Assembly (NCBI GenBank): GCA_937899305.1 | Contig: CALDJV010000935.1 | Coordinates: forward strand, 1 to 14,122 | Reading direction: 5' to 3' | Length of the DNA: 14,122 nt | Source of the DNA: an uncultured Cytophagaceae bacterium | Lineage (GTDB): Bacteria; Bacteroidota; Bacteroidia; Cytophagales; Microscillaceae | Shown here: piece after piece, positions 1-14,122 of the stretch | How positions within the stretch are numbered: position 1 is the first letter of the stretch | How the letters are laid out: each line of letters begins with the position of its first letter | The notes under the pieces: model-generated | Told to the model about the DNA's origin: nothing | What the model saw: only the letters and a program-made list of their open reading frames with translations | The model's database searches: none | Made by a program: the position numbers and the translations under genes

Positions 1-164
1 CTCAGGATGACTAAAGAATCCTGACGATGGTAAAGAGGAAGAAAAAGTTACTGACGACCGATACAATGTTTTATTTTTGATTATAAAAACCAGGGGAAGA
101 AATTCACCAATTTTGAACACCCTACCTGACAAGTTTTGAAAACCTGCCAGGTATTTTTATCAGG

Positions 165-2714
165 TTAATCTTCCTCCTCCTCTTCTACGTCGTCGGCTTC
201 GGCTCCGTTGAGGCTAGACTCTAGCACATTGGCCAGTTTGGTGCCTTTGAGCATATTGGTAAATACCTGGGCCACACTTTTGCCTCCTAAAATGGCCAAT
301 GGTGACATTGATTTTGCCATTTTTTCGGCCAACGATTTATCGGCAAAGGCTTGCAAAGCAGCTATCAAATTAGGTGATACTGCCTCTGCTTTGTTCACTA
401 CCGCTTGTACTTCAGCCTGGAGTTGTTCCAGCTCTTGATTCAACTCTTTTTGAGCAATTTCTAACAGCAACTCTTCTTCTTTCTGCTTGCGGGCCAGTTC
501 TGCATCATTGATTTGAGTCAATGATTCTTGCTCAGCCAAATTGGCTTCCAGTTTACGTTGCTTAGACTGAATCTCCATGTCTAGTTTTACCAAAATAAGC
601 TCCAACTCTTTTTTGGCTTCCTTTTTCTCCAGATCTAACTGCCGTTGGGTAGTTTCGGATTTGGTAGTAGCAATCTGCTGACTGATTTCTTCGCTTTGTT
701 GGGTAAATTCTAATTTGCGTTTTTCGGCATCTATACGCAAAGTTTGTTTGACCACCTCTTGTTGGGCCGAAATCAACAGGTTTTCAATGCTTACATCGCT
801 CAGGCGAATGTCCAGCACTTCTATGTCATAAATACGCATGTTGTTTTCTTCAAACATACGCCCAGGACGTTTGTTGCTTTCTCCGGCTTCGCCCAAAATA
901 CTATTACGCAAAATGTCAATGCCATTGGCATAAAAATCCATAATGGTGTGTTTTTTCACCTTGTTACGGATAAACGAACGCATGTGGTCGGTCAAAAATT
1001 TGACATAATTCTCAACATTGAACCACTTGTCGGACGCTTCTTCAAAATTGACCCGATAAGAAATGGTAATGCTCACTTGGGTAAAATCAGAAGACTCGGC
1101 TTTGACAATGTCTGAAATTTTGTTGTGTAGTACTCGTAAATATACCGTAGTAATGGTATTATCGGAAGTTTTGGGCGTTCCAGTGGAGAGGGTAATGGGT
1201 TCCAGGCTTTCGTCGTATTCCAGCAAATAAGTTTGGGGCCCGGCTACTACTTTGCGTTGTCCGGTTTTGCTCACTACCAAAATGGCGTACCCGGTCCATA
1301 AGTTGATGGTCACCGCTCCTTCGTATTTGGTATCGAGGGTAATGGTGCGTGGAGGGGTAAAACTTTGCTCTCGGGTAAACTCATCTCCGGCCATTTCTTT
1401 GGAGACTTTCTCTTTCTTCTTGCGACGAGGTGCGGGTACCGGCATTTCGTCGGCCAGTTCTTCCATTTCTATGGCTGCCGCAGGTTCGGCCGATACCTCC
1501 AGATAACCTTCATTTGATTTACGGCGGTCCAGCTCTTGTTTGAGTTGACGATTGTATTCTAAGGCCTCCGAGTTACCTGGAAACCAAAGTTTTACTTGCT
1601 TGGGGTCTAATACCCGCTTGACAAATACTGCTTCTCGAGGATCGGGTAAAAACATGGCCGGACCTTGTTTGAGCGATACTTTTCCAGTTTTTCGGTTGAG
1701 GTAGTAGCGCCCTTCTCCTGCTGGAATGGCAATGGCATAATGTCTTTCTTTTTGGCCATATTTGATAATGGCATGTTCAGGACGAGGATAGTAAATCATT
1801 TGCTCGTTTCCGGTCACAAACAATTCTTCCCCTTCCTGGAAAGTAGTGCCATTTTCTTCATAAGGAGCTATGACCTTGATATACAAGCCACTCATTTCGT
1901 TGAGTTCAATTGCCCGGAACTTACGCGATCCATTGCGATATACAAACTCCTCAGTAGGTTTTGGGAAGACCACCGCAGGGCCTTGAATGTAACGTTTGTT
2001 GCCGTCTTCGTCTAGTAAAATACAATACTCGAGCCGCTCCAGAGTAACCGCTTCTCGCACGTAGTTTCCACTCACCCCTCGTACCACTTCTATGCCGGTG
2101 GGTGGGATATAAAACGATACTGCATCTCCCTTGATGATCAGCATTTTACCCATCGTCAAATCCGGCATTTCCTCCAGATTTATCACTTCTACCTCTGAAC
2201 CTTCTCCCTCCTTTTCTTCTCCGTCTTTGGCCTCTCCTGAACTTTTGGTTTTAATAACTGCCTTGTTCCAATTTTGTCGGGCTTCCTCTTCGTCGTATAC
2301 TCTTACCGCCAAATATTGATTTGAGCGTAAATGATGGCCTCTCAGCACTTTTACCATTTGTCCAGGCCATAGAGCAAAGTTAATAGGTCCCGGAATATTT
2401 ACTTTGCGCCCCACATTCAAAGCTCCCAGATTGCTTACGGTCCCATTTTTAGGCTGAGTACCATCCTGTGGAGGGTTCTTCATGACAATGTACCAACCCT
2501 CGGGTGCAGTGGTGAAAGTTTGCAAGGAAGTGTCAAGTGTACAACGTTCAAACTTTTTAGTTTGTGAATCAAATATGACGGGTTTATCAGTATTGGCCAA
2601 ACTGGTTTTATAAGGCCCTACATATACGTTGATGTTTCCTTTGGTTTGGTCAGAAATAAAAGCAAATTCATTGGGAGTAAGCACCAGATCGCGCTCTCGG
2701 TTGGAGTCTGACAT
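165..2714 (-). CDS. Major vault protein (MVP) homologue, full length (849 aa)
   Basis: The N-terminus (VLTPNEFAFISDQTKGNINVYVGPYKT) resembles the eukaryotic MVP N-terminus ([26 protein letters not shown]). About 500 aa follow as repeated beta-rich MVP-repeat-like modules. Next comes a shoulder-like segment (IYDIEVLDIRLSDVSIENLLISAQQEVVKQTLRIDAEKRK). After it is a long E/K/Q-rich coiled coil, equivalent to the cap-helix. The C-terminal block (PNLIAALQAFADKSLAEKMAKSMSPLAILGG) resembles the human MVP C-terminus and is followed by an acidic tail, DDVEEEEED. Start is ATG and stop is TAA. Confidence 0.85.
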   Translation of the reverse strand: MSDSNRERDLVLTPNEFAFISDQTKGNINVYVGPYKTSLANTDKPVIFDSQTKKFERCTLDTSLQTFTTAPEGWYIVMKNPPQDGTQPKNGTVSNLGALNVGRKVNIPGPINFALWPGQMVKVLRGHHLRSNQYLAVRVYDEEEARQNWNKAVIKTKSSGEAKDGEEKEGEGSEVEVINLEEMPDLTMGKMLIIKGDAVSFYIPPTGIEVVRGVSGNYVREAVTLERLEYCILLDEDGNKRYIQGPAVVFPKPTEEFVYRNGSRKFRAIELNEMSGLYIKVIAPYEENGTTFQEGEELFVTGNEQMIYYPRPEHAIIKYGQKERHYAIAIPAGEGRYYLNRKTGKVSLKQGPAMFLPDPREAVFVKRVLDPKQVKLWFPGNSEALEYNRQLKQELDRRKSNEGYLEVSAEPAAAIEMEELADEMPVPAPRRKKKEKVSKEMAGDEFTREQSFTPPRTITLDTKYEGAVTINLWTGYAILVVSKTGQRKVVAGPQTYLLEYDESLEPITLSTGTPKTSDNTITTVYLRVLHNKISDIVKAESSDFTQVSITISYRVNFEEASDKWFNVENYVKFLTDHMRSFIRNKVKKHTIMDFYANGIDILRNSILGEAGESNKRPGRMFEENNMRIYDIEVLDIRLSDVSIENLLISAQQEVVKQTLRIDAEKRKLEFTQQSEEISQQIATTKSETTQRQLDLEKKEAKKELELILVKLDMEIQSKQRKLEANLAEQESLTQINDAELARKQKEEELLLEIAQKELNQELEQLQAEVQAVVNKAEAVSPNLIAALQAFADKSLAEKMAKSMSPLAILGGKSVAQVFTNMLKGTKLANVLESSLNGAEADDVEEEEED

Positions 2715-2907
2715 ATCGTTTTCTATTTTGATTAAGTTGGGTATGTATTATGGCAATGAATTTACATAAAAATTTGAGTTTTGGGGTATTGGTTTCCTTT
2801 TTTTTGGCCTGAAGCAAAGACATAGTGAATGAAAATAATCGCTATTTCAGGCTTACGAATTCGTAGAGCACAATTCAATCAAAAGCGCTTGGTCAAGTTT
2901 CAAACCC

Positions 2908-2949
2908 CAATCAATAAAAAACCCAACAGATTTGGAGGGTCTGTTGGGT
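2908..2949 (-). terminator. Rho-independent terminator of the upstream 557-aa gene, insulating it from MVP
   Basis: Read on the minus strand, the element starts about 30 nt after the stop at 2981. It reads CCCAACAG-(11 nt loop)-CTGTTGGG, an 8-9 bp GC-rich stem, followed by TTTTTTATTGATT. Confidence 0.55.
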
Positions 2950-2980
2950 AGATTTTGTCATTTACTTTATCGAGCATACC

Positions 2981-4654
2981 CTAGGCAAGTCGTCCATCCG
3001 CTCTCATTTTATTGTAATGTTCGGGAGTGAGCTCAGCCACTGGAATGCGAAACACATTCATGGCTAACCCATCTGATATATGCTCCTGCTCATTGTCTAT
3101 TTCTTTTTTCCCTTTTTGCACATACTGGAGCTTGTTCAATCCTGGAAAAGTTTCTACCAATTGACCATTAGGGTCTTTTACCCACCAATGTTCATAGCCA
3201 ATTTTATCTGGTCGCTCATGCATACAAATTTTCCAAGTGTTTTTGGTTCCAAGTGGCAACACACGCAAGCCGTAGCTCTCAATTGTATTGATCATCACTT
3301 GTTGAGTAGCCTGCTTTACGGCCTTTTTTCTTGCTTTCCCAATTTTTTTGGCACTCCCCTGCCTACGGCTCACTTCTTTCAGATGAGTTACTGTAGCATC
3401 TAAACGTTCTCGAGCATTGTCAAACCTATTTTTTTCTGCTTCATTTAACTCATTTTGTACAAACATCGTGTATGCATCATCCCGTCCTAAACCAATCCCA
3501 GTTCCTCCTACATTGGATGGTACTTGGCTACTTACATAACCAAACATCGCGGTAGATTTTGGTACTCTCACATCTTCTGAAACTGCTCCAAGTAAGGCCC
3601 AATTCCAACAAGCAGGTCCATCAACAGACTTTTTCGTTTGAGAGGCCTCAAACTCCGCTTGAGCTTCTTCATCTAAGATAGTAGGCCCTAACTGGGAGCT
3701 TTCATTCTTTTTAAAATTCTTAAGTTTTACTGGTTTCTCATTCTCTTCTGCCATAATACCGCCTGCAAGCACATACAATTCACCTGGCTGAAATTCCCTT
3801 TCTACATCTTGAACCGTACCGTCGTAACTTAGTATCTTGTACACTTTTCTGGGCAAAGGTATCTTGGTATTGGTGCCCCAGATTTTTTTTAAAAATGATT
3901 TATCATTTACTGTCACCACTGTACCTTCTGGCAAAGTTCCTACCCTCTGTCCACTTTTGTTATAAACAGCCCTGTCACTCACATCACCTTTTTTGGAGGT
4001 ATGGTTTTTTATCTTGGTATTGATAATCCTCTGAACAGGAGAGGCCAAACTAAGTGTACTGGTGTTTGTTTCATTAGAAGAAACCTTTTCATCTGCTTTT
4101 CTTTGCAAAGGCTGCGCCGCCATTTGGTCGACTACTTGCTCTCGGGTGGTGTCTACCGATTGGCCGTTGACTACCTGGTCGCCTTTTGGAGTTCCATTTT
4201 TTGCATTGTCTATGGCGTGAGCCACTTCATGTTTGATGTTCGACTCAGTATCCTTGCCTGGAGCAAAGTCAATCTTGCTCCCCTGAATGGTGGCTTCGGC
4301 ATTGACTGTGTCTGGAAAAGGTGAATTATGATTGGCCTTCAAGCTCGACGTATCTACCCCATGTTGCTGCCCCATGGTGGTGGCTATTTCCTTGAATTTG
4401 GCCGAGCCTTGAGGTTGTTTGGTTTGTCCAGCCGAATTACGCTGCACTGGCTTTTGTTTGGCCTGAACGGGACGTTGCTTGGCTTGAATTGGTTTTTGTT
4501 TGGCCTGAACAGGGCGTTGCTTCGCTTGAATCGGCTTCTGCTTGGCTTGAATGGTACTTTTGCTTTGGGCTTTAGCTGATTTATTTGGTTCAACTGACTG
4601 TTTGCTTTGGGCTTGGGTGTTGTCGTTATGATTAGATGATGCTTGTTGATGCAT
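2981..4654 (-). CDS. Multidomain protein: N-terminal Q/K/P heptad repeats + DUF4157 (zincin-like HExxH) domain + C-terminal putative papain-fold Cys/His domain; polymorphic-toxin/effector-like
   Basis: Residues about 92-150 (MGQQHGVDTSSLKANHNS...NAEATIQGSKIDFAPGKDTESNIKHEVAHAIDN) fit the DUF4157 pattern. That pattern is M..FG.DFS.VR.H...A.A.T.G..I.F..G.......HE.AHxxQ, with the HExxH motif. Residues 36-71 are five copies of QAKQ[KR]P[IV]. In the C-terminal 330 aa, Cys349 sits in GPACWNWALLG and His489 in IGYEHWWVKD. Their 140-aa spacing is reminiscent of the papain-like Cys...His-aromatic arrangement. No signal peptide is evident. Confidence 0.7.
   Translation of the reverse strand: MHQQASSNHNDNTQAQSKQSVEPNKSAKAQSKSTIQAKQKPIQAKQRPVQAKQKPIQAKQRPVQAKQKPVQRNSAGQTKQPQGSAKFKEIATTMGQQHGVDTSSLKANHNSPFPDTVNAEATIQGSKIDFAPGKDTESNIKHEVAHAIDNAKNGTPKGDQVVNGQSVDTTREQVVDQMAAQPLQRKADEKVSSNETNTSTLSLASPVQRIINTKIKNHTSKKGDVSDRAVYNKSGQRVGTLPEGTVVTVNDKSFLKKIWGTNTKIPLPRKVYKILSYDGTVQDVEREFQPGELYVLAGGIMAEENEKPVKLKNFKKNESSQLGPTILDEEAQAEFEASQTKKSVDGPACWNWALLGAVSEDVRVPKSTAMFGYVSSQVPSNVGGTGIGLGRDDAYTMFVQNELNEAEKNRFDNARERLDATVTHLKEVSRRQGSAKKIGKARKKAVKQATQQVMINTIESYGLRVLPLGTKNTWKICMHERPDKIGYEHWWVKDPNGQLVETFPGLNKLQYVQKGKKEIDNEQEHISDGLAMNVFRIPVAELTPEHYNKMRADGRLA
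4442..4549. repeat. In-frame imperfect 21-bp tandem repeat x5 (encodes QAKQ[KR]P[IV]) inside the 557-aa CDS
   Basis: The nucleotide period is visible directly: ttgcttggcttgaattggtttttgtttggcctgaac is repeated with small substitutions. The protein-level heptad repeat confirms it. Confidence 0.8.
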
Positions 4655-5255
4655 ATTAGTTTTTAAAATTAGATAATACCTTGAAAATCTACCAACCTGA
4701 ATAAAGCAGAATGGGCCACTTTAGCTAAAGCCACCTATGTTTGGTGTCTTCAGCTTACCTAGGTATTCTTCGAAGCTGTATCGTGATTATTTTCACAATA
4801 CAGTTTTAAAATCTGCTTTTATTTGGTTATAAAGTCGTTTTTAAAAACTTTTTTCTTTCAGGCATCCGCCTGATGACTGCAATCAATAACCCTTACAAAG
4901 CAGGCTAACATTTGGTTGCTTTGATAATTAAATTTATTAACAGCCTCTTAACACAGTTGTATTATTCAAATAATCATTTTCACCTTATCTCAAGCATTGA
5001 AGTAGGTTTATTAATTCGTAATAAGGTCGAAGGCAACTTGATATTGACTAAAAAGAAAGCCTTGTGCTCAAGTCAAAAAAACCTTAACTCAAACAATTTT
5101 TCATAAAATCTTACCATAATTCGTTATATTACCATTGAAGTATAGATTGATCATAAAAATTAGCATCTTTGAAAGCATACGATGCTTGGAAGCGGTGATT
5201 TTATTTGAAAACCAACTTTCAAACACTCGTACCAAACATTCAAATAATTATTTCT
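4655..5255. promoter_or_regulatory. 600-bp AT-rich divergent intergenic region; presumed promoters for the 557-aa gene (minus strand) and the subtilase (plus strand)
   Basis: The stretch has no convincing ORF and sits between divergently transcribed genes. It contains small palindromes (gtttttaaaaac, caggcatccgcctg). I could not assign precise -33/-7 elements by eye. Confidence 0.3.
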
Positions 5256-6917
5256 ATGAAATTGAAAAGTATTTTTATAATAGGTTTATTGTTCATTCAA
5301 GTAGGGATGGCCAACGCCAAAACTCCTACCCCTTACAAATTCCCCTACCCCGTTTTCCATTTTTCTAATATTTATTGGGTAGTAGCCAGTGATAGCACCG
5401 ACAAACCTCCCAAAAACTGGTTCAATCTCGATGCCAAGCAGGATAATATTCGTGGAGTGAGTACCGAAAAAACGTATCAGACCTTGTTGAAAGGCAAAAA
5501 ATCTACTACAGTAGTAGTAGCCGTGATCGACTCGGGCATAGATACCAAACACCCTGATTTGAAAAAGCAGATTTGGGTAAACCCCAAAGAAAAACCGGGC
5601 AACGGCAAAGACGATGACAAAAATGGGTATGTGGATGATATAAATGGTTGGGATTTTATCGGCGGAAAAGACGGCAAAGATGTGGATATAGATACCTATG
5701 AGCTTACCCGGGAATTGCTTCGTCTGGAGAAAAAATTTGCCGATGCCGACCCTGAAAAGATACGCAAGAAAGACAAGAAGGAATATGAGAGTTATCTTAA
5801 AATAAAGAAAACACACGCCAGTAAATACGGTGAGGCGCGTCAGACCTACGCAGTGATCACTCAAATCAAAGCAGCTTATCAAGTGGTTCAAAAAGCACTT
5901 GGCAAAAAAGATGTCAAAAAAGAAGACCTTGATAACCTCAACAGTGAGGACGCGGAGGTAGTGCAAGCAGCTCAGATTCTAAAACGAGCCATTGGATTTG
6001 GCCTTCCCTTGGGTCAGATAGAGGAAGCCCACAAACATTACGAAACCATGTTTAAATATTGGTTGAACAAGGATTTTAACCCCCGCAATATTGTAGGAGA
6101 TAACTACAAGAAGTTGAATGAAAAAGGGTATGGTAACAATGAGGTACAGGGCCCTGACGCAGATCACGGAACTCACGTAGCAGGGATTATCGGAGCCGAC
6201 AGAACCAATGATGTGGGTATCAAAGGAGTAGCTGACAATGTCAAAATTATGGTATTGAGAGCAGTGCCCAATGGAGACGAAAGAGACAAGGACATTGCCA
6301 ACGCCATTCGTTATGCAGTAGACAATGGGGCACGCATCATCAACATGAGTTTTGGTAAGTCTTATTCTCCTAACAAAGAATTTGTTGACAAGGCGGTAAA
6401 GTACGCCCAAAAGAAAGGAGTATTGTTGATACACGCTGCAGGTAACGACGGCGCTAACTTGGACGAAGCAGCTAATTTTCCTAATAAAAAATTCAAAAAC
6501 TCTAAAAAATCGGCCAAAAACTGGATTGAAGTAGGTGCTTCTTCCTGGGGAGACGAGAAGAATTTTGTGGGTAGTTTTTCAAACTATGGTAAAACTGCAG
6601 TAGATGTATTTGCCCCTGGGGTAGCCATCAACTCTACCATTCCTGACAATAAATACACTGAGCATGACGGAACCAGTATGGCCGCTCCGGTAGTATCTGG
6701 AGTAGCTGCTTTACTGATGTCTTACTTCCCTGAATTGAGCGCTGAAGATGTAAAGGAAATCATTCTGAAGTCATCAATTAAGTACACTGATAAGGAAATC
6801 AACAAACCGGGTAGAGGTAAAAACACCATTAAATTTGGTGAATTGTCAGCAACTGGGGGTATTGTCAATGCATACGAAGCCGTAAAAATGGCTCAAAACT
6901 GGAAGGATAATAAGTAG
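5256..6917 (+). CDS. Secreted subtilisin-like serine peptidase (S8 family)
   Basis: The catalytic triad motifs are present: Asp in VVAVIDSGID, His in DADHGTHVAG, Ser in GTSMAAPVVSG, plus the oxyanion Asn in HAAGNDG. A signal peptide MKLKSIFIIGLLFIQVGMANA begins at an internal ATG (about 5256). The ORF-track start at 5205 is probably upstream of the true start. A charged insert of about 180 aa lies between the catalytic Asp and His. Confidence 0.9.
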   Translation: MKLKSIFIIGLLFIQVGMANAKTPTPYKFPYPVFHFSNIYWVVASDSTDKPPKNWFNLDAKQDNIRGVSTEKTYQTLLKGKKSTTVVVAVIDSGIDTKHPDLKKQIWVNPKEKPGNGKDDDKNGYVDDINGWDFIGGKDGKDVDIDTYELTRELLRLEKKFADADPEKIRKKDKKEYESYLKIKKTHASKYGEARQTYAVITQIKAAYQVVQKALGKKDVKKEDLDNLNSEDAEVVQAAQILKRAIGFGLPLGQIEEAHKHYETMFKYWLNKDFNPRNIVGDNYKKLNEKGYGNNEVQGPDADHGTHVAGIIGADRTNDVGIKGVADNVKIMVLRAVPNGDERDKDIANAIRYAVDNGARIINMSFGKSYSPNKEFVDKAVKYAQKKGVLLIHAAGNDGANLDEAANFPNKKFKNSKKSAKNWIEVGASSWGDEKNFVGSFSNYGKTAVDVFAPGVAINSTIPDNKYTEHDGTSMAAPVVSGVAALLMSYFPELSAEDVKEIILKSSIKYTDKEINKPGRGKNTIKFGELSATGGIVNAYEAVKMAQNWKDNK

Positions 6918-6949
6918 TTTTTTTAGTTTTAAAGTCAATAGTTTTCTTT

Positions 6950-7021
6950 AGTTGGTAGTCCGTAGTTTTATTTAGTTGGTAGTCCGTAGTTTTATTTAGT
7001 TGGTAGTCCGTAGTTTTATTT
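6950..7021. repeat. Perfect 3 x 24-bp tandem repeat (AGTTGGTAGTCCGTAGTTTTATTT)
   Basis: Three identical head-to-tail copies start about 33 nt after the subtilase stop. Degenerate AGTCC(A)-containing copies follow at about 7022-7050 (agtccacggtcgacagtccatagtccacag). Confidence 0.9.
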
Positions 7022-7168
7022 AGTCCACGGTCGACAGTCCATAGTCCACAGTAGCGCGATGCGGAACAATTAGCTTTTGGTCCTTGGTTGACTAATTGAA
7101 TGAAAAATGATACGCCGCTTTGCGCAACCCGAAGTCCTGAGCGAAGCCGAAGGAACTAGCAATGCAGC

Positions 7169-7291
7169 AATGAGCCGAAGGCGGAACAATGTAACAATAG
7201 CAATAAGTCATCGCTTTGCGAAACAATTAAACAATGAGCCGAAGGCGGAGCAATGTAACAATAGCAATAAATCATCGCTTCGCGAAACAAT
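7169..7291. repeat. Two near-identical ~59-bp direct repeats (period 64 bp) with degenerate partial copies upstream
   Basis: The unit aatgagccgaaggcgg[a/g]acaatgtaacaatagcaataa[g/a]tcatcgctt[t/c]gcgaaacaat occurs twice. Related fragments (gcgatgcggaacaat, gagcgaagccgaagg, ccgctttgcgcaaccc) lie at about 7055-7168. Each unit carries an imperfect internal inverted repeat, gccgaaggcg / cgcttcgcg. Confidence 0.85.
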
Positions 7292-7367
7292 AGTCCAGAG
7301 CTGATGAAATCGAAAAGTTATTTTTTCAGCTTTAATAAACGTAAAAAATTGACTATATCAATAATTG

Positions 7368-7400
7368 GTCTCGCAGGTATTTTACTTGCGAGGCTTTTTT
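7368..7400 (+). terminator. Intrinsic-terminator-like hairpin + U-tract, 17 nt upstream of the start codon of the next gene
   Basis: The sequence is GGTCTCGCAGG-tatttta-CTTGCGAGGC, a roughly 10-bp stem, followed by TTTTTTATAT. This pattern exists only on the plus strand. It could end the subtilase/repeat transcript or act as a leader attenuator for the three-gene operon. Confidence 0.45.
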
Positions 7401-7416
7401 ATATCTGAGCATTCCC

Positions 7417-8040
7417 ATGAAAATATATTTTACCCTTGATGAACTTCCTGAACAATATCAAAAACAATTCAAGGCCGGATTTGACCTCAATCATCTCCAG
7501 CAATTTTACCCTGCCACCAATCCTTATGGCACTACCCTATTTACCCTGATTGCCTTTGGCTTGCCCGCCATTTTGGTCATCGTTTTAGTAATCATGGCGC
7601 TTTTTCAGCCTATGGCCAACCCTCCTCAAACCACCCAAGATTGGCTCATTTTTGTTAGTATTGCCGCTTTTCTATTACTCATTCTGGGTGGCCTCGCTTG
7701 GTGGATTGTTCGGGTATTCAAAAACTTTCGAGTTGTTTCTCAAATTAAAAAGATACGCAAGGAAAAAGGGCTTAGTCACTATGGATTGCTCTTAGATGAA
7801 CACTTGGTGTACCGGCCCATTGCTACCCAAAAACCAATACTGATGTTACCTAAAGACTTGGTCCGTCGGGTAAAGCAAGTGTCTCAACGGGTAGAAGGCA
7901 GCAACCGACAATACTTACAACTGATTTACTTTGATGAAGACCAACAGCAGGAGTTTTATGTCGAGATGAGCCGCTATGAACTAGATAAGCAGTACACTCA
8001 AGGCAGGACCCTGAGTACCATTATAGAAAAATGGAAATAA
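7417..8040 (+). CDS. Hypothetical 2-TM inner-membrane protein (paralogue of the gene at 8683-9363)
   Basis: It has a 207-aa ORF with an ATG start. The N-terminal cytoplasmic motif is QKQFKAGF...LQQFYP. Two hydrophobic helices follow (FTLIAFGLPAILVIVLVIMALF and LIFVSIAAFLLLILGGLAWWIV). The C-terminal domain of about 100 aa has a conserved YRP motif. It is clearly paralogous to the third gene of the cluster. Confidence 0.7.
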   Translation: MKIYFTLDELPEQYQKQFKAGFDLNHLQQFYPATNPYGTTLFTLIAFGLPAILVIVLVIMALFQPMANPPQTTQDWLIFVSIAAFLLLILGGLAWWIVRVFKNFRVVSQIKKIRKEKGLSHYGLLLDEHLVYRPIATQKPILMLPKDLVRRVKQVSQRVEGSNRQYLQLIYFDEDQQQEFYVEMSRYELDKQYTQGRTLSTIIEKWK

Positions 8041-8044
8041 AAAT

Positions 8045-8617
8045 ATGAAGTACACATCGAAAAATAAGTATCAAATAGGGTGGTTGATTGTATGGGGTAT
8101 TTGCCAATGGCTTACCGGGTGTTACCCCATCTACCTCGAAAGGTCTAAAGCCAATGGGGAAATGCGAACGGTGAAAACCTGGCATTTTACCAGAAACCTA
8201 GTCAAGCACAAATCACTGACCTCAGATGGAAAACTTGTCAAACGATTTTATATCTCGCCTAGTGCCCGATGCTTGTCTCGCCAAGACATCAAACTCATCA
8301 AAAAACAATTGAGGACCAAAAAAGTCAGGTTTACAAACTATACCATCTACTCACAAGATTGCAAAGCTGTATTTTCACTCTCGGTAGACGATTACATTGC
8401 TCCTTTTTACCGCATTTCAATTCCCATGATCAAGACAAATGGGAAAATATTTATCAATCATTGCCTTCAGGATAACCCTCCCCTTGCGGAATTGCTTGTC
8501 ATTGAAAAACTACTCCGTAAGGAGTTTTCAGCAGATGTAGTAAAAACCATTCTGGCTCGTTATAAAAGAGGTACGCAACGGTTTGTCAGGCGTCATTATC
8601 ATCGAACGAGGCATTGA
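8045..8617 (+). CDS. Hypothetical protein, putative lipoprotein (lipobox L-T-G-C at Cys26), very basic C-terminal tail
   Basis: It has a 190-aa ORF that starts 4 nt after the previous stop. The N-terminus MKYTSKNKYQIGWLIVWGICQWLTGC has a positively charged n-region, a hydrophobic h-region and an LTGC lipobox. The C-terminus is RYKRGTQRFVRRHYHRTRH. No recognisable domain. Confidence 0.55.
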   Translation: MKYTSKNKYQIGWLIVWGICQWLTGCYPIYLERSKANGEMRTVKTWHFTRNLVKHKSLTSDGKLVKRFYISPSARCLSRQDIKLIKKQLRTKKVRFTNYTIYSQDCKAVFSLSVDDYIAPFYRISIPMIKTNGKIFINHCLQDNPPLAELLVIEKLLRKEFSADVVKTILARYKRGTQRFVRRHYHRTRH

Positions 8618-8682
8618 AGCAGGTCATCAACAAGGCGCTAAAACCAACTCAACCAGGTTCTTTAATCAAACGATTTAGAAAA

Positions 8683-9363
8683 ATGCAGGTATATCATTCG
8701 TGGAAAGACTTTCCAATTTCCTGTCAAAAACAATTGAAAGAAGGTTTTAATACTCAAAATCTCAAGGATTTTTATCCAACATCTACCAACTTCTGGATGT
8801 ATTTGCTTGGGACGGTTTTATTAGGCATTCCAGGATTCATTGCCAGTATTTGGGGAGTCATTGCTATAGTAGATTTGCTATTTTTTCAGGATAATTTTTC
8901 TGATTCTTCTAGTATAAGCGACACCATTGTATTGGTGGTGGCCGTTTTGATTGTCCTCATTCTATTGATCGCTTTTTTTATTTGGGGAATCAACCTATTC
9001 ACCAATTTTATGAGAGCCATCCAAATAAAGCAAGGCCACAAAAAACAACGGGTATATTTTGGTTTGTGGTTAGCCACCGATGCACTCATTTACCGTCCAC
9101 GATTGGCAAATAAAAAACCGATCTATATTTCTAAAAAACAAGTAACTAAAGCCGAATGGCATTCCGAAATACTCCCTTCAGGTTCGGGTGGAGGCAAACA
9201 TCAAGTATACTTTAGTTTGATATATTATCACGATTCAGTTCAAAATGTCGAATACCATATTAGGATTGACCAAGAAGCACTGGATGCCCAATACTTGCAA
9301 CAAAGGGAGGTGTATCAAATTGTAAATGATTGGCTGACCAAAAAGGGGAAAAGGAGGCATTGA
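8683..9363 (+). CDS. Hypothetical 2-TM inner-membrane protein (paralogue of 7417-8040)
   Basis: The ORF track opens at a TTG at 8614 that overlaps the preceding stop. The first ATG, at 8683, gives an N-terminus MQVYHSWKDFPISCQKQLKEGFNTQNLKDFYP. That aligns residue for residue with MKIYFTLDELPEQYQKQFKAGFDLNHLQQFYP of the first gene. Two TM helices follow, then a conserved block GL.L....L[VI]YRP....KPI. The true start is uncertain between 8614 and 8683. Confidence 0.65.
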   Translation: MQVYHSWKDFPISCQKQLKEGFNTQNLKDFYPTSTNFWMYLLGTVLLGIPGFIASIWGVIAIVDLLFFQDNFSDSSSISDTIVLVVAVLIVLILLIAFFIWGINLFTNFMRAIQIKQGHKKQRVYFGLWLATDALIYRPRLANKKPIYISKKQVTKAEWHSEILPSGSGGGKHQVYFSLIYYHDSVQNVEYHIRIDQEALDAQYLQQREVYQIVNDWLTKKGKRRH

Positions 9364-9750
9364 CTTTCGAGACCTGATTACAGTTATTTTTTACCGATCA
9401 TGTTTAAGAATTAGCATCAATCATACACTATTACCAAGGCATATTTGTGCTTGTCTTGCCTCGCTATGAAACCATCTGTCTGTCTCATACGTTACACAAA
9501 AGAGAAAAAATCCTAACAAAGGAATAAGAATCAATCAACTTATCAATTATCAGAGTTAAGATGCTCTGAAATCCACTTCTTCACCTTACTTAGGTGTCTT
9601 CACTAACCGGTGATTATACCATTAAATTCACTTTGGAAGGTTGTAGTTTTTAGGTGCTCACTCTTCAGGTAGCAGTTGCGTAATTAGGGGCAATTTTGCT
9701 CACCCTGCTACCCTACAAACTTTTCATGAAGCAAAACCACAGCACATTTT

Positions 9751-10503
9751 CTAGCTTTTTTTAGTATTGACCAACTCCAAAGTACGGCAAGTTTTTTCGG
9801 CAGCGGCTTGCTCAGCTTTCTTTTTGCTAAATCCAGTACCGCTGGCAACTGGTTCTTCGTCTATGATAACCTGTGCTACAAATTGTCGTTGATGTTTGGA
9901 TCCTTCCTCTTTCACAATCTCAAACCGTAGCTCCCGATTGTTTTTCTGAGCCCACTCGATTACAATACTTTTGTAGTTTTGGTTGTTCTCGATGATTTCT
10001 CCCAAGTCTAAGTGGCCCATCACAATTTTCCTTACTACAAATTTACGGCAGTAATGGAAGCCTTTGTCCAGATAGACCGCTCCAACCAATGCCTCTAGAG
10101 CATCACCTCCCATAGATTTGTAAGTAAAATTGTTTCTACGGCTTCCCTCAAACTTGATCAAGTCCTGGATACCCATTTTGCGAGACAATTGGTTCAAAGA
10201 TTCCCGATTAACAATTCGCGCTCGAATTTCAGTCAAAAAACCTTCTTCTTTGAATGGATATTTTTTGAATAGGTAATCGGCTACTATTGCGCCTAGAATA
10301 GCATCACCCAGATACTCTAAGCGTTCATTAGACTCTTTGAATCCATCTTGCAGCGATTTGGAAGCCGAAGTGTGGCTCAGGGCAAGTTGATAAAGAGAAA
10401 GGTTAAACGGCTTGTGTCCAATAATTCTCTTGATAGAATTGGCAAGCCGTTTTTCTTCTTCGGTATGTTTTTTAAGTAGTTTAGATATAAATCTAAAAAT
10501 CAC
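9751..10503 (-). CDS. rnc: Ribonuclease III
   Basis: The RNase III signature ERLEYLGDAILGAIVADYLF is present. A C-terminal dsRBD-like region carries the AEQAAAEKTCRTL motif. It has a GTG start overlapping the fabF stop by 1 nt, and 250 aa. Confidence 0.9.
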   Translation of the reverse strand: MIFRFISKLLKKHTEEEKRLANSIKRIIGHKPFNLSLYQLALSHTSASKSLQDGFKESNERLEYLGDAILGAIVADYLFKKYPFKEEGFLTEIRARIVNRESLNQLSRKMGIQDLIKFEGSRRNNFTYKSMGGDALEALVGAVYLDKGFHYCRKFVVRKIVMGHLDLGEIIENNQNYKSIVIEWAQKNNRELRFEIVKEEGSKHQRQFVAQVIIDEEPVASGTGFSKKKAEQAAAEKTCRTLELVNTKKS

Positions 10504-11756
10504 TACATTTCTAATTTTTTAAAAACTAAGGTAAAATTATGTCCGCCAAAACCAAAGGTATTGCTCATGGCATAATTTATTTCTCTTTCCTGAACTTTGT
10601 TGAAGGTAAAATTCAACTTTTTGTCAAATTGCTCATCATCCGTAAAATGGTTGATGGTAGGAGGAACAACTTGATGTTGAATTGCCAAAATAGTCGCTAC
10701 GGCTTCTATTGCGCCAGCAGCTCCTAACAAATGCCCAGTCATTGACTTGGTAGAGCTAATATTAAGATTATAAGCGTGTTCACCAAATACTTTTTGAATG
10801 GCTAAAGCTTCGCTGTAGTCTCCCAAAGGAGTAGAAGTACCGTGTACATTGATATAATCAATGGCTTCGGCAGTTATCCCAGCATCATTCAATGCATCTT
10901 GCATCACCTTGATTGCTCCTAGCCCTTCAGGATGAGGAGCAGTAAGATGGTGAGCATCAGAAGACATACCGCCACCTACCAATTCAGCATAAATTTTAGC
11001 ACCACGTGCCTTGGCGTGTTCGTATTCTTCTAGTATGATGGCTCCACCACCTTCTCCAAGTACAAAGCCATCTCGTTCCTTGTCGAAAGGGCGAGAAGCA
11101 GTAGTTGGAGAATCGTTTCTTTCAGAAAGTGCTTTCAAAGCATTGAAGCCTCCAATACCTGTTTCGGTTACTGCTGCTTCTGAGCCTCCCGAAACGGCCA
11201 TGTCAATTCTACCCAAGCGGATGTAATTGAAAGCATCTACCATGGCATTGGTAGCCGATGCACAAGCCGAAACCGTTACGTAGTTTGGCCCTCGAAAGCC
11301 ATATTTTATAGAGATGTGACCCGAACTTAGGTCAGCAATCATTTTAGGTATAAAAAACGGACTAAACTTAGGAGTTCCATTGCCTTGGGCAAATCCCATT
11401 ACTTCGTCCTGGAAAGACTTCAAACCACCAATACCTGCCCCCCAGATAACTCCTACTCGATCTTTGTTGATGCTATCTAGGTTTACTTGTGCATCTTGGA
11501 TGGCTTCTTCGCAAGCCACCAATGCATAGTGGGTAAAAATATCCATCCGGCGTGCATCACGACGATGAATATGGTCTTCAACGTTGAAGTTTTTTACCTC
11601 ACAGGCAAATTTAGTTTTGAATTTTTCTGCGTCAAACTTAGTAATTGGAGCAGCCCCACTTACCCCATTCTTTAAACCCTCCCAAAACTCAGGTACAGTA
11701 TTACCGATGGGAGTGAGTGAGCCTAATCCAGTTACTACAACTCGTCTTAAATTCAT
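10503..11756 (-). CDS. fabF: 3-oxoacyl-[acyl-carrier-protein] synthase II (KAS II)
   Basis: The protein is 417 aa. It has the active-site Cys in VSACASATNA, the HGTSTPLGD His motif and the NISSTKSMTGHLLGAAG motif. The overall beta-ketoacyl-ACP synthase family layout is typical. Confidence 0.95.
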   Translation of the reverse strand: MNLRRVVVTGLGSLTPIGNTVPEFWEGLKNGVSGAAPITKFDAEKFKTKFACEVKNFNVEDHIHRRDARRMDIFTHYALVACEEAIQDAQVNLDSINKDRVGVIWGAGIGGLKSFQDEVMGFAQGNGTPKFSPFFIPKMIADLSSGHISIKYGFRGPNYVTVSACASATNAMVDAFNYIRLGRIDMAVSGGSEAAVTETGIGGFNALKALSERNDSPTTASRPFDKERDGFVLGEGGGAIILEEYEHAKARGAKIYAELVGGGMSSDAHHLTAPHPEGLGAIKVMQDALNDAGITAEAIDYINVHGTSTPLGDYSEALAIQKVFGEHAYNLNISSTKSMTGHLLGAAGAIEAVATILAIQHQVVPPTINHFTDDEQFDKKLNFTFNKVQEREINYAMSNTFGFGGHNFTLVFKKLEM

Positions 11757-11772
11757 AAACAGAGTTTATTTT

Positions 11773-12015
11773 TTACTTTACGTTCTCTTCTAGGTAGGTA
11801 ATGGCCTGTCCCACGGTTCCAATATTTTCTGCGTGATCGTCAGGAATAGAAATTTCAAACTCTTTTTCAAACTCCATGATCAGTTCGACAGTATCCAAAG
11901 AATCAGCCCCTAAATCATTAGTGAAGCTTGCTTCTGGAGTAACCTCTGACTCTTCAACACCAAGTTTATCAATAATGATATTATTAACTTTTTTTGCAAT
12001 TTCTGACATTTTCAA
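11773..12015 (-). CDS. acpP: Acyl carrier protein
   Basis: It is about 78 aa with the phosphopantetheine-attachment motif [17 protein letters not shown]. The true start may be the ATG two codons inside the ORF (MSEIAKK...). Confidence 0.9.
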
Positions 12016-12449
12016 TAATAGTTTAGTTAAAAAAACTCTGCAAAGAAATGCATTAAAAACAATATTATCAAACTATTTTAACGATTCGTGATCTGATTCG
12101 CTGGAAATTATATTATTGTTAAATATTGCTTTCTTTGGATAGTTATTTGGCAAAAACACCTTGAATTATCTTTTTTGTGAATCCAAACATCCATATTATT
12201 TTTGGACATCACAAAAAAACGCAAAATATAATTTTGAGCCTTAGTGCTGGTTTGTCAATCACTGGATCGCAAAGACAAAGCGTTAAAAAATGATCGTAAA
12301 TGGCGCTAATTATCTTCACATTACCAATATATTGTAGCTTTTTACAAAATAGTAGTACAAATTGATCAAAATTTGATGCATATTGCGGCCATTGTACAAA
12401 AAATTCTCCCCATAACTAAATTGAGACAAAAACACATAAGATAGATAAG
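12016..12449. promoter_or_regulatory. Divergent AT-rich intergenic region between acpP (minus strand) and pyk (plus strand); presumed promoters
   Basis: The 430-bp stretch has no ORF. It contains the near-palindrome TTGATCAAAATTTGATGCA about 55 nt upstream of pyk. No specific promoter elements were called. Confidence 0.3.
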
Positions 12450-13877
12450 ATGAAACCATTTTTCAACAAAACAAAAGTAATCGCAACTGTGGGTCCCGCC
12501 ATTAATACCAAAGAAAAACTATTGGAAATGGTTCAGGAAGGTACCGATGTATTTAGATTGAATTTCTCACACGGAAGCCACGAAGAGCACAAAAAGGTGA
12601 TTCAATATATTCGTGAGCTAAATAAAGAGCATAACTTAAATATATGTATTCTACAGGATTTGCAAGGTCCTAAAATTCGCCTGGGAGAAGTTGCTTCTGA
12701 TCAGGAGTTTTTGAAAGCCGGAAAAAAAGTAACAATTACGACCCAACCTATTAAGTCTACGGCTAAAAAAATTAGCACCACTTACAAAGCTTTTGTAAAC
12801 GATGTAAAACCGGACGATCAGATTTTGATTGATGATGGTAAGATCGAACTAAAAGTATTGGAGGTAAGAAACAAAGAGGTCGTTGCTGAGGTGATATACG
12901 GTGGACAATTGAAGTCTAAAAAAGGAATTAACCTTCCTAGTACCAATATATCTTCTCCTTCGTTGACCGAAAAAGATACCAAAGATTTGATGTTTGGCCT
13001 GGAAGAAGAGGTAGACTGGATTGCTTTGTCGTTTGTACGCTCGCCCATCGATGTATTGCTATTGAAGCACATCATCAAGCAACAGGGCAAAGAAATAAAG
13101 GTCATTGCCAAGGTAGAAAAACCAGAAGCCATTGATCAAATAGATGCCATTATTGAAGCATCTGATGCCATTATGGTAGCCCGTGGAGACTTGGGAGTAG
13201 AGGTGAAAATTGAGGAAGTACCTTTGATTCAAAAATTGATCGCTCAAAAATGTCGTCAAGTAGGCAAACCCGTCATCATTGCTACTCAAATGCTGGAAAG
13301 TATGATTGACAACCCTCGCCCTACTCGCGCCGAAACCAATGACATTGCCAATGCGGTAATGGATGGTGCCGATACGTTGATGCTCAGCGGAGAAACTGCG
13401 GTGGGTAAGTATCCACTGGAAACGGTGCGTACGATGAATGAGACCATCCGGATTATGGAGCAAAAAAGTGAGAGTATTTACCATAAAAAAGAGGTACTGC
13501 ACCGTAAGTCTCCCACTTATTATAATGACAGCATCATTGCGGCAGCCTGTGTATTGGCCCAAGATACCCATGCTAAAGGCATTGTGGGTATGACTCAATC
13601 GGGGTACACCGCTTTTCAGGTGGCTCGTTTCCGCCCCAAGGCACATATTTTTATATTTACGGCCAATCGTAAACTGCTCAACCGCTTGAGTCTGGTTTGG
13701 GGAGTAAGGGCTTTTTATTATGACAAGTTTACCTCTACTGATGATACTTTTGACGAGGTATTGGGACTACTTCAGCAAGAAGGGCACCTCAACAAAGGGG
13801 ATATTTGCATTAACTTGGCCAGTATGCCCATTGCCAAGCGACAACGTACCAATACCATTAAGATGTCGCAGATCTAA
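12450..13877 (+). CDS. pyk: Pyruvate kinase
   Basis: The protein is 475 aa. Its N-terminus is KVIATVGPAINTKEKLLEMVQEGTDVFRLNFSHGSHEEH. It has the MVARGDLGVEV active-site loop. A C-terminal effector-binding domain is present. Confidence 0.95.
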   Translation: MKPFFNKTKVIATVGPAINTKEKLLEMVQEGTDVFRLNFSHGSHEEHKKVIQYIRELNKEHNLNICILQDLQGPKIRLGEVASDQEFLKAGKKVTITTQPIKSTAKKISTTYKAFVNDVKPDDQILIDDGKIELKVLEVRNKEVVAEVIYGGQLKSKKGINLPSTNISSPSLTEKDTKDLMFGLEEEVDWIALSFVRSPIDVLLLKHIIKQQGKEIKVIAKVEKPEAIDQIDAIIEASDAIMVARGDLGVEVKIEEVPLIQKLIAQKCRQVGKPVIIATQMLESMIDNPRPTRAETNDIANAVMDGADTLMLSGETAVGKYPLETVRTMNETIRIMEQKSESIYHKKEVLHRKSPTYYNDSIIAAACVLAQDTHAKGIVGMTQSGYTAFQVARFRPKAHIFIFTANRKLLNRLSLVWGVRAFYYDKFTSTDDTFDEVLGLLQQEGHLNKGDICINLASMPIAKRQRTNTIKMSQI

Positions 13878-13900
13878 TTGTAATTACTAAGCTTTTATTG

Positions 13901-13950
13901 ATCCCTTTTATAATATATGGATATTGTAAAAGGGATTTTTGTTGTTTTTT
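13901..13950 (+). terminator. Rho-independent terminator of pyk
   Basis: The stem ATCCCTTTTA-(16 nt)-TAAAAGGGAT has 10 bp. It is followed by TTTTGTTGTTTTTTTT and lies about 25 nt after the pyk stop. Confidence 0.6.
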
Positions 13951-14122
13951 TTCAAAATGTAGTACAATCCTCTCCTCAACAAAACAATCACCAATGTCTG
14001 TCAAGCCTGATGCATCTGTGCATATTTAGCATACCCACAAATTCTCCTGAAAATATTCGGCTAGCCGAGTATTTTTTTTATTTTTGTTAATGGAGTTTTT
14101 GGTACTCAATCTCTATTTTTTT

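Follow-up and report, generated by a model that had tools for sequence, protein, structure and literature searches.

Whether bacteria build vaults, and where a bacterial gene for the major vault protein (MVP) comes from, are the questions raised by a stretch of DNA from an uncultured Cytophagaceae bacterium. This stretch, referred to here as the window, comprises positions 1–14,122 of the contig CALDJV010000935.1 (assembly GCA_937899305.1). An open reading frame (ORF) of 849 codons, which starts with ATG and stops with TAA, is located at positions 165–2714 on the minus strand, with the TAA at positions 165–167. It is a complete coding sequence for a bacterial MVP-like protein of 849 amino acids with a mass of 96 kDa and an isoelectric point of 5.2. 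The initial annotation regarded this product as a full-length, eukaryote-type MVP. The analysis described below characterizes it as a native, soluble, stand-alone MVP homologue, which probably self-assembles into a vault-like or SPFH-type cage of reduced height. What vaults do has been an unsolved problem since 1986, and a bacterial homologue provides a genetically simpler system for asking what the MVP cage does.

The relationship to MVP is apparent from the domain families found in the protein. The Pfam family MVP_shoulder (PF11978), which the initial annotation had named as a test, matches residues 530–640 with an E-value of 1.8e-30 and 105.8 bits (cut-off 25), covering positions 2–118 of the 118 profile positions. 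The second family named there, PF01505, gave no match to the protein up to E ≤ 10. The repeats are recognized instead by the MVP repeat family Vault_3 (PF17795), which matches residues 483–526 with an E-value of 6.2e-9 and exceeds its curated cut-off. The Band_7 family (PF01145) was also detected within the shoulder (6.3e-6, 26.8 bits versus a cut-off of 23.6). When the single protein was compared with the PDB sequences using phmmer, only MVP chains were returned (6e-12). A profile built from 54 close relatives matches the rat and human MVPs with an E-value of 2.7e-25, and a profile built from 116 diverse relatives matches the rat MVP with an E-value of 1.1e-42. The latter match consists of three collinear pieces, in which the query residues 13–51 correspond to residues 10–47 of the rat protein (R1; weak on its own), residues 230–352 to 294–409 (R6–R8), and residues 461–784 to 458–814 (from R9 through the shoulder and the cap helix into the first part of the cap ring). 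The repeat at residues 262–313 additionally matches the rat repeats R3 and R5, as is expected because the protein contains a repeat array. BLASTP against human MVP, with a sequence that agrees with the PDB alignments, shows 23% identity between the query residues 224–804 and the human residues 275–826 (E = 8e-15). Taken by themselves, the N-terminal residues 12–81 give a BLASTP E-value of 0.66 against human MVP, which is below significance. The initial annotation described the N-terminal and C-terminal blocks as recognizably similar to human MVP; for the N-terminal block only the collinearity and the structural match support this, and the similarity of the C-terminal block is low.

The structure of the protein was predicted with AlphaFold2 from an alignment of 116 sequences drawn from a library clustered at 50% identity. 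This model replaced one obtained from a shallow alignment (54 sequences, all at least 59% identical), in which the N-terminal half was unusable with a mean predicted local distance difference test score (pLDDT) of 51.6. The model used here has a mean pLDDT of 81.7 and a predicted template modelling score of 0.61, with pLDDT values above 90 across the repeats and the shoulder. In the Foldseek comparison with the PDB, the vault chains of rabbit, human and rat are the top matches (5e-33 to 3e-26, 16–17% identity), followed by the crystal structures of the mouse repeats R1–R7 (3e-14). The SPFH cages, including flotillin, QmcA, prohibitin, HflK/C, erlin and stomatin, come after the vault chains with E-values of 2e-6 and weaker. 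The protein contains the SPFH domain fold and, N-terminal of the shoulder, an MVP-type array of beta repeats. The similarity is therefore not confined to a generic coiled coil or to the SPFH region, since the repeats match mouse R1–R7 structurally and Vault_3 is found above its cut-off. The Pfam matches, the profile comparisons with the rat and human proteins and the Foldseek search all agree, and they establish that a full-length homologue of eukaryotic MVP, related to it over its whole length, is encoded in this bacterial genome.

Assignment of secondary structure in the model with DSSP reveals seven small beta domains, designated here Ra–Rg, while vertebrate MVP has nine (R1–R9). Three repeats precede the equivalent of R6, compared with five in human MVP (query residue 224 aligns with human residue 275 in BLASTP). 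The MVP layout claimed in the initial annotation was thus found with its repeats, SPFH shoulder, cap helix and C-terminal segment, but with seven repeats instead of the nine of vertebrates. The first domain, Ra (residues 9–57, positions 2544–2690; all features of the gene are on the minus strand), is an R1-like N-terminal beta domain with a pLDDT of about 95, which matches residues 10–47 of rat MVP. Its loop KTSLANTD (residues 36–43) is invariant in the alignment of close relatives. Rb comprises residues 64–125 (2340–2525; pLDDT 94–96). Rc (residues 133–210, 2085–2318), recognized in the model and by hhalign comparison with Re, is split by a disordered acidic insert at residues 157–190 (2145–2246), in which the pLDDT falls below 50 for residues 161–177. 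This insert is negatively charged in 84% of the 116 family members. The next three domains are supported by the profile and BLASTP alignments, for Re and Rf together with the modelled secondary structure: Rd (residues 219–257, 1944–2060) aligns with vertebrate R6, Re (residues 265–316, 1767–1922) with R7, and Rf (residues 324–365, 1620–1745) with the beta part of R8. With a mean majority fraction of 0.79, Rd is better conserved in the family than any other block. Rf is followed by two helices (residues 371–402) and a disordered charged loop (residues 403–449, pLDDT about 40), together encoded at 1368–1604. This region is collinear with residues 410–456 of human MVP, the helical and disordered part of vertebrate R8, and is the least conserved internal region of the protein (majority fraction 0.24). 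The last repeat, Rg (residues 469–523, 1146–1310), is the equivalent of R9 according to the Vault_3 match, the profile and the model. It carries the loop LSxGxPK (S510, G512, P514, K515), of which S510 and K515 are invariant in the 116 sequences. When the repeats were compared with each other using hhalign, Ra and Rf were matched with 93% probability, Rc and Re with 74%, Rb and Rc with 41%, and several other pairs with 30–45%. The repeats, which would form the wall of a vault, are the best-conserved part of the protein (majority fraction 0.55–0.79).

The repeats are followed by the shoulder (residues 531–638, 801–1124), which has the SPFH/Band-7 fold, and by the cap helix (residues 641–776, 387–794), which is modelled as one unbroken alpha helix with a pLDDT of 66–86 and aligns with the cap helix of the rat and human proteins. 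A long single helix is therefore present as the initial annotation stated, but it has 136 residues rather than roughly 150. Across the 116 family members the length of this helix has a median of 136 and a range of 118–158 residues, and its sequence has a majority fraction of 0.35; the length is tightly kept between phyla, although few parts of the protein are less conserved in sequence. The conserved C-terminal segment (residues 781–834, 213–374) contains three short helices (residues 784–834) with a pLDDT below 50 in the monomer model. Its residues P781, A786, F790, D792, L795, M803, P805, I808–G811, S813 and G824 are invariant among the close relatives. The segment occupies the position of the vertebrate cap ring, and the alignment to human MVP reaches human residue 826 with low similarity; it is by position that we regard the segment as equivalent to the cap ring. 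The acidic tail (residues 835–849, 168–212), which ends with AEADDVEEEEED in the translated sequence, is real, the last 18 residues having a net charge of −10. It is, however, a lineage-specific feature rather than a general one, as a negative charge in the tail is seen in only 32% of the 116 family members.

In human MVP, a pocket for NAD+/ADP-ribose lies between the shoulders of adjacent protomers and is made up of R504, K506, R507, H509, R511, D521 and W545. In the profile alignment, human K506, G503 and P505 are kept as K515, G512 and P514 of the window protein. The residues R504 and R507 are each replaced by threonine, H509 by aspartate, D521 by asparagine and W545 by valine. The conservation of the human pocket was rejected because its basic residues are mostly replaced, and judging from the alignment the window protein probably does not use it.

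The window protein has the fold and the domain order of MVP, is soluble, and is encoded by a solitary gene under strong constraint. We propose that its molecules would assemble side by side into a closed dome, as MVP and the solved SPFH proteins do. Cage formation is suggested because every solved relative, be it MVP or an SPFH protein, builds a closed dome from an SPFH domain, a long helix and a C-terminal closure. The shoulders and cap helices would constitute the roof of the dome, the C-terminal segments would close its apex, and the repeat array would form a cylindrical wall. With seven repeats versus nine, the barrel would be shorter than that of the vertebrate vault. Its diameter would be fixed and somewhat below that of the vertebrate vault, as the cap helix has 136 residues compared with about 156 in rat; the preservation of the helix length among the 116 members while the sequence drifts points to a geometric constraint. 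The C-terminal segment, conserved and yet modelled with low confidence as a monomer, fits an element that would fold only upon oligomerization. The copy number may amount to a few tens of molecules per half. A vault-like cage may arise from two such domes that join at their conserved N-terminal repeats. The region around D39/N40 joins the half-to-half contacts in the human vault, and pairing through Ra is suggested because its invariant KTSLANTD loop aligns with this region. The cage would be soluble, since the protein contains no transmembrane or other hydrophobic segment, no hairpin and no lipobox, and its maximal Kyte–Doolittle average over 19 residues is 1.03.

In its strongest form the proposal states that Microscillaceae-type bacteria build true, closed, two-halved vaults in the cytoplasm, that the seven-repeat MVP is their sole component, TEP1, PARP4 and vault RNA being absent, and that these particles are the prokaryotic forerunner of the eukaryotic vault. 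This version is put forward tentatively, as doubt slightly outweighs belief. Several points weigh against the cage and against a vault in particular. The assembly, the copy number and the pairing of the halves are drawn from homology and geometry. With seven repeats versus nine and 23% identity to human MVP, the lateral contacts may differ from those of the vertebrate vault. The human nucleotide pocket (R504, R507, H509, W545, D521) is mostly replaced, and only K506 and the G-x-P framework are kept. There is no TEP1 (TROVE) or PARP4 gene within the window, and the neighbours at 77 MVP loci from other genomes suggest no such partner. Searches of the window with Rfam and ARAGORN found no RNA family, vault RNA or tRNA. 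Across the 77 loci no neighbour hints at a cargo or a partner of any kind. Finally, the Band_7 signal and a recent report of eukaryotic vaults on membranes (PMC13100048) make a membrane-apposed single dome possible.

Such a dome is the main rival to the soluble cage. The protein would form a single SPFH-type dome on the cytoplasmic face of the inner membrane, in effect half a vault instead of a free particle with two halves, which would organize or enclose a membrane patch or a membrane protein in the manner of HflK/C, QmcA, stomatin, flotillin, prohibitin and erlin. According to the title of a 2026 paper, vaults reportedly associate with membranes in situ. The shoulder also exceeds the Band_7 threshold (26.8 bits versus 23.6), and a Band_7 signal marks this bacterial clade, separating it from the eukaryotic and cyanobacterial MVPs (Sokolskyi 2019, 10.1101/872010). 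We nevertheless consider this rival unlikely, although it is the one that deserves most attention. The window protein has no transmembrane helix, hairpin or lipobox with which to reach a membrane, and its hydropathy does not exceed 1.03. In place of a membrane anchor it carries about 520 residues of vault-wall-like MVP repeats, the best-conserved part of the protein. Furthermore, across the 77 loci MVP has no conserved neighbour of the NfeD or FtsH kind, nor any other conserved membrane partner.

It is considerably less probable that the protein forms no cage at all and acts as a soluble scaffold or sequesters nucleotides, for instance under stress or in defence against phages, a role on which the 2019 preprint speculated. 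GMP and CMP pockets have been predicted in the region of residues 500–700 of the bacterial homologues (Sokolskyi 2019, 10.1101/872010), the human protein does bind NAD+/ADP-ribose, and phages carry full-length homologues. The human pocket, however, spans two adjacent protomers and so needs assembly, and its basic residues are mostly replaced here. Neither the MVP-like protein nor the product of the ORF upstream of it has a match in PADLOC or PHROG, and there is no defence-island context around the 77 MVP loci. A cap helix of fixed length and a conserved C-terminus are moreover hard to explain without oligomerization. The soluble, probably cage-forming MVP homologue therefore remains our preferred reading of the gene product.

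The origin of the gene can be assessed from its composition, its conservation and its surroundings. The GC content of the MVP gene is 0.445 and that of its third codon positions (GC3) 0.446, and the neighbouring genes have a GC content of 0.36–0.435. The relative synonymous codon usage of the gene correlates with that of the rest of the window with a coefficient of 0.71, as compared with 0.71 for fabF and 0.81 for pyk. In this comparison with the flanking housekeeping genes, which the initial annotation had called for, the MVP gene falls within the fabF/pyk range. The ratio of nonsynonymous to synonymous substitution rates (dN/dS) is 0.023 and 0.027 against the counterparts in the marine bacterium AO1-C and in UBA11690, respectively, while the neighbours pyk, fabF and rnc show 0.030, 0.045 and 0.030 in the AO1-C/UBA11690 comparison. 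Purifying selection thus acts on the MVP gene as strongly as on the housekeeping genes beside it. The three ORFs of 84–123 amino acids found on the opposite strand within it were disregarded because they lie inside strongly conserved MVP coding sequence. The gene order pyk, acpP–fabF–rnc, membrane proteins, S8 peptidase, hypothetical gene and MVP is common to the window and AO1-C and is partly shared by UBA11690. Because its GC, GC3, codon usage, synteny and dN/dS match those of the resident genes, the MVP gene is native to its host, a member of the Microscillaceae (Cytophagales, Bacteroidota), is inherited with the chromosome and belongs to the bacterial MVP-like family. The initial annotation had asked whether the gene arrived by horizontal transfer; recent transfer was rejected on these grounds. 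A further rival reading takes the gene for a recent arrival from a eukaryote or a phage, or for eukaryotic contamination of the metagenome bin. It might be invoked as MVP is best known from eukaryotes, as the huge-phage homologues are 42% identical and as the window is a short (14-kb) metagenomic contig. This reading is effectively refuted by the location of the gene among the bacterial housekeeping genes rnc, fabF, acpP and pyk in AO1-C order, by a composition and codon usage that fit the neighbours, by an identity of 84–93% to Microscillaceae orthologues, as compared with 42% for the phage copies and 23% for human MVP, and by the lack of a PHROG match and of phage genes in the window.

The family to which the protein belongs is large. 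A word-indexed protein search returned 6,807 proteins; each of the best 120 has the full length and an identity of 59% or more. Among these are proteins of AO1-C (93%), a Microscillaceae metagenome-assembled genome (92%), Microscilla marina (84% over 100% of the length), Bernardetia litoralis (66%), and Riflebacteria and Ozemobacteraceae (about 61%). An exhaustive search of the 50%-clustered library yielded 1,353 clusters at E ≤ 1e-3, of which 654 reach E ≤ 1e-30. The alignments of its top 150 clusters extend over almost the full length, with 39–54% identity. In a scan of one genome per species, 399 genomes were found to encode a full-length relative with 58–93% identity. They span Bacteroidota, Riflebacteria, Sericytochromatia, Chloroflexota, Desulfobacterota, Myxococcota, Planctomycetota, Gemmatimonadota, Bacillota and Vulcanimicrobiota, and the identities are 58–62% even in the last eight of these. 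The label "eukaryote-type" is not appropriate for a protein with such relatives and 23% identity to human MVP. The identity to the window protein remains flat at 58–62% across at least ten phyla despite very deep taxonomic distances. This profile points to extreme constraint or else to transfer that happened repeatedly between phyla. Many of the MVP-positive hosts belong to filamentous, gliding or predatory lineages with large genomes. Many family members are labelled "major vault protein" by the Joint Genome Institute.

Full-length MVP-like proteins are also encoded in huge-phage genomes of 462–735 kb (LR756501.1, LR756500.1, LR756503.1). They are 42–43% identical to the window protein over 97–98% of its length. 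The copy in LR756501.1, a 735,411-bp uncultured phage, is located at positions 5995–8424 of the extracted locus and encodes 809 amino acids with matches to MVP_shoulder (1.2e-28), Vault_3 (4.9e-11) and Band_7. Its neighbours are of phage type and include a phage metallopeptidase, DUF5662 and a gene whose match to a family of prohead core serine proteases (Peptidase_S77) is weak and stays below the cut-off. The huge-phage records are unannotated, and in the literature searched no paper was found that names both huge phages and the major vault protein.

The existence of bacterial MVPs is already known, and the finding in the window is a rediscovery of a family documented since 2013. The proteins A1ZGE7 of Microscilla marina ATCC 23134 and I4AHY9 of Flexibacter litoralis were then listed as bacterial MVP homologues with approximately 25% identity to eukaryotic MVPs, and these proteins, the M. 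marina orthologue among them, reportedly pass criteria of fold and lateral docking in silico, which speaks for the cage proposed above (Daly et al. 2013, PMC3762200). To judge from the organism and the assembly, the M. marina protein with 84% identity to the window protein is A1ZGE7. The same bacterial MVPs were later analysed and a link with gliding bacteria was drawn (Sokolskyi 2019, 10.1101/872010). Homologues have since been described in Asgard archaea, with five repeats in the representative (Nat Microbiol 2026, PMC12962969), and in two gut phages other than the huge phages above, the proteins of which cluster with the bacterial clade (10.1101/2023.11.10.566534). In the published trees the Cytophagales and Myxococcales proteins form a bacterial clade apart from the clade of eukaryotes and Oscillatoriales (10.1101/872010), and the eukaryotic MVPs lie on a long separate branch (10.1101/2023.11.10.566534); the clade placement of the window protein is based on these trees together with the identities measured here. 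The literature searched on bacterial and prokaryotic vaults contained no experimental study of bacterial, Asgard or phage MVPs, in agreement with the statement of the initial annotation that bacterial homologues had been noted but not characterized. The idea of a bacterial vault has likewise been in print since 2013, and only its demonstration would be new. What the present analysis adds for the family is the count of seven repeats, the absence of conserved neighbours, the conserved length of the cap helix, the lack of conservation of the human NAD+ pocket and the huge-phage homologues.

The surroundings of the MVP gene were examined by clustering crude ORF calls around 77 non-redundant MVP loci. 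No neighbour gene is conserved across these loci, and in M. marina and B. litoralis the MVP gene lies in surroundings that bear no relation to those in the window. Sensor kinases (10 of the 77 loci), S8 peptidases (8), ABC transporters, CorA and LepA were considered as partners and rejected, because they are generic and vary in position and orientation. Upstream of the MVP gene, an intergenic region of 206 bp (2715–2920, minus strand) extends from the hairpin of the upstream gene to the ATG and is the presumed location of the promoter. A sigma-70 scan of the minus strand found no site there, and no exact Bacteroidota TAnnTTTG motif was seen by eye. The terminator-like hairpin of the upstream gene (2921–2949, minus strand) consists of a 10-bp stem followed by UUUUUUAUU and has a folding energy of −14.4 kcal/mol (z = −1.2). 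Its form is canonical, including the U run, and its energy is unremarkable; it separates the upstream gene from MVP. On the other side, a stem-loop with a 14-bp stem and no U tract (123–153, minus strand) starts 11 nt past the MVP stop codon. It has an energy of −20.7 kcal/mol (z = −5.0), and none of 200 shuffled sequences folds equally well. This stem-loop may be the end of the transcript, as a terminator lacking a U tract, or an mRNA stabilizer. Because of the upstream hairpin, the 206-bp spacer and the stem-loop after the stop codon, the MVP gene looks monocistronic from its sequence context.

The gene upstream of MVP (2981–4654, minus strand) encodes an orphan protein of 557 amino acids with no match in Pfam, NCBIfam, PADLOC or PHROG. 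At its N-terminus the unit QAKQ[KR]P[IV] is repeated in tandem about five times, and the protein also contains a HEVAH (HExxH) motif. A DUF4157-like HExxH domain, guessed by eye, was rejected as there is no Pfam support for it at E ≤ 10. The protein evolves fast, showing 47–48% amino acid identity to its AO1-C and UBA11690 counterparts, while the adjacent MVP shows 93–94%. The ORF at 5205–6917 (plus strand) encodes a secreted-type S8 subtilase (Pfam 1.1e-56). The match extends over 427 residues for a profile of 288 positions, so that the catalytic domain contains large insertions. The occurrence of S8 peptidases near MVP in 8 of the 77 loci is probably due to chance in S8-rich genomes. Three tandem small ORFs of 207, 190 and 249 amino acids are located at 7417–9363 (plus strand). 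They have weak, sub-threshold matches to Yip1, DUF975 and DUF898 and probably encode membrane proteins. These ORFs diverge quickly, with 55–71% amino acid identity to AO1-C, in which a metallophosphatase gene is inserted at this place.

If bacterial vaults are real, they would be protein compartments of a class not known before in bacteria. The family reaches across at least ten phyla and into huge phages, and it bears on whether the vault has a prokaryotic origin. A single gene with housekeeping-level constraint and with cultivable relatives (Microscilla marina ATCC 23134 and Bernardetia litoralis DSM 6794) offers a handle for the study of vault function. This significance belongs to the family and not specially to the window, since the family and the closest orthologue are already present in the literature and in Pfam-based annotation. 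The bacterial MVP gene is thus a good experimental subject rather than a new discovery.

Compared with known systems, the window protein shares with eukaryotic MVP (PDB 4V60, 4HL8, 7PKZ, 9BW5, 9Z4W) the domain order of the whole chain: beta repeats, an R8-type insert, R9, the SPFH shoulder, a long cap helix and a C-terminal segment. It differs from the eukaryotic protein in its sequence (about 23% identity, 16–17% by structural alignment), in having seven repeats instead of nine and a cap helix of 136 instead of about 156 residues, in a shoulder that is still detected by the Band_7 profile, and in the basic residues of the NAD+/ADP-ribose "keyhole", which are not conserved. Eukaryotic MVP forms a D39 78-mer from two 39-mer halves; the window protein may assemble in a comparable way. 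The SPFH/Band-7 cages (HflK/C, QmcA, stomatin, prohibitin, erlin, flotillin) are held at the membrane by an anchor and have no array of MVP repeats at the N-terminus; the window protein has no anchor and carries about 520 residues of repeats ahead of the SPFH domain. The Asgard and phage MVP homologues possess, like the window protein, the cap helix, the shoulder and fewer repeats than vertebrate MVP, but they come from other lineages; the repeats of the window protein number seven, and its place is in the bacterial clade. The bacterial MVP-like proteins of Cytophagales and Myxococcales (M. marina A1ZGE7, F. (Bernardetia) litoralis I4AHY9, Saprospira grandis H6L4P8, and those of Plesiocystis and Corallococcus) belong to the same family, with a length of 820–860 amino acids and the same Pfam signature of Vault_3, MVP_shoulder and Band_7. 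The window protein is distinguished from them by its unusually acidic C-terminal tail and by a genomic neighbourhood unlike those of M. marina and B. litoralis. Judged by its sequence, it is a member of this family and in effect an orthologue.

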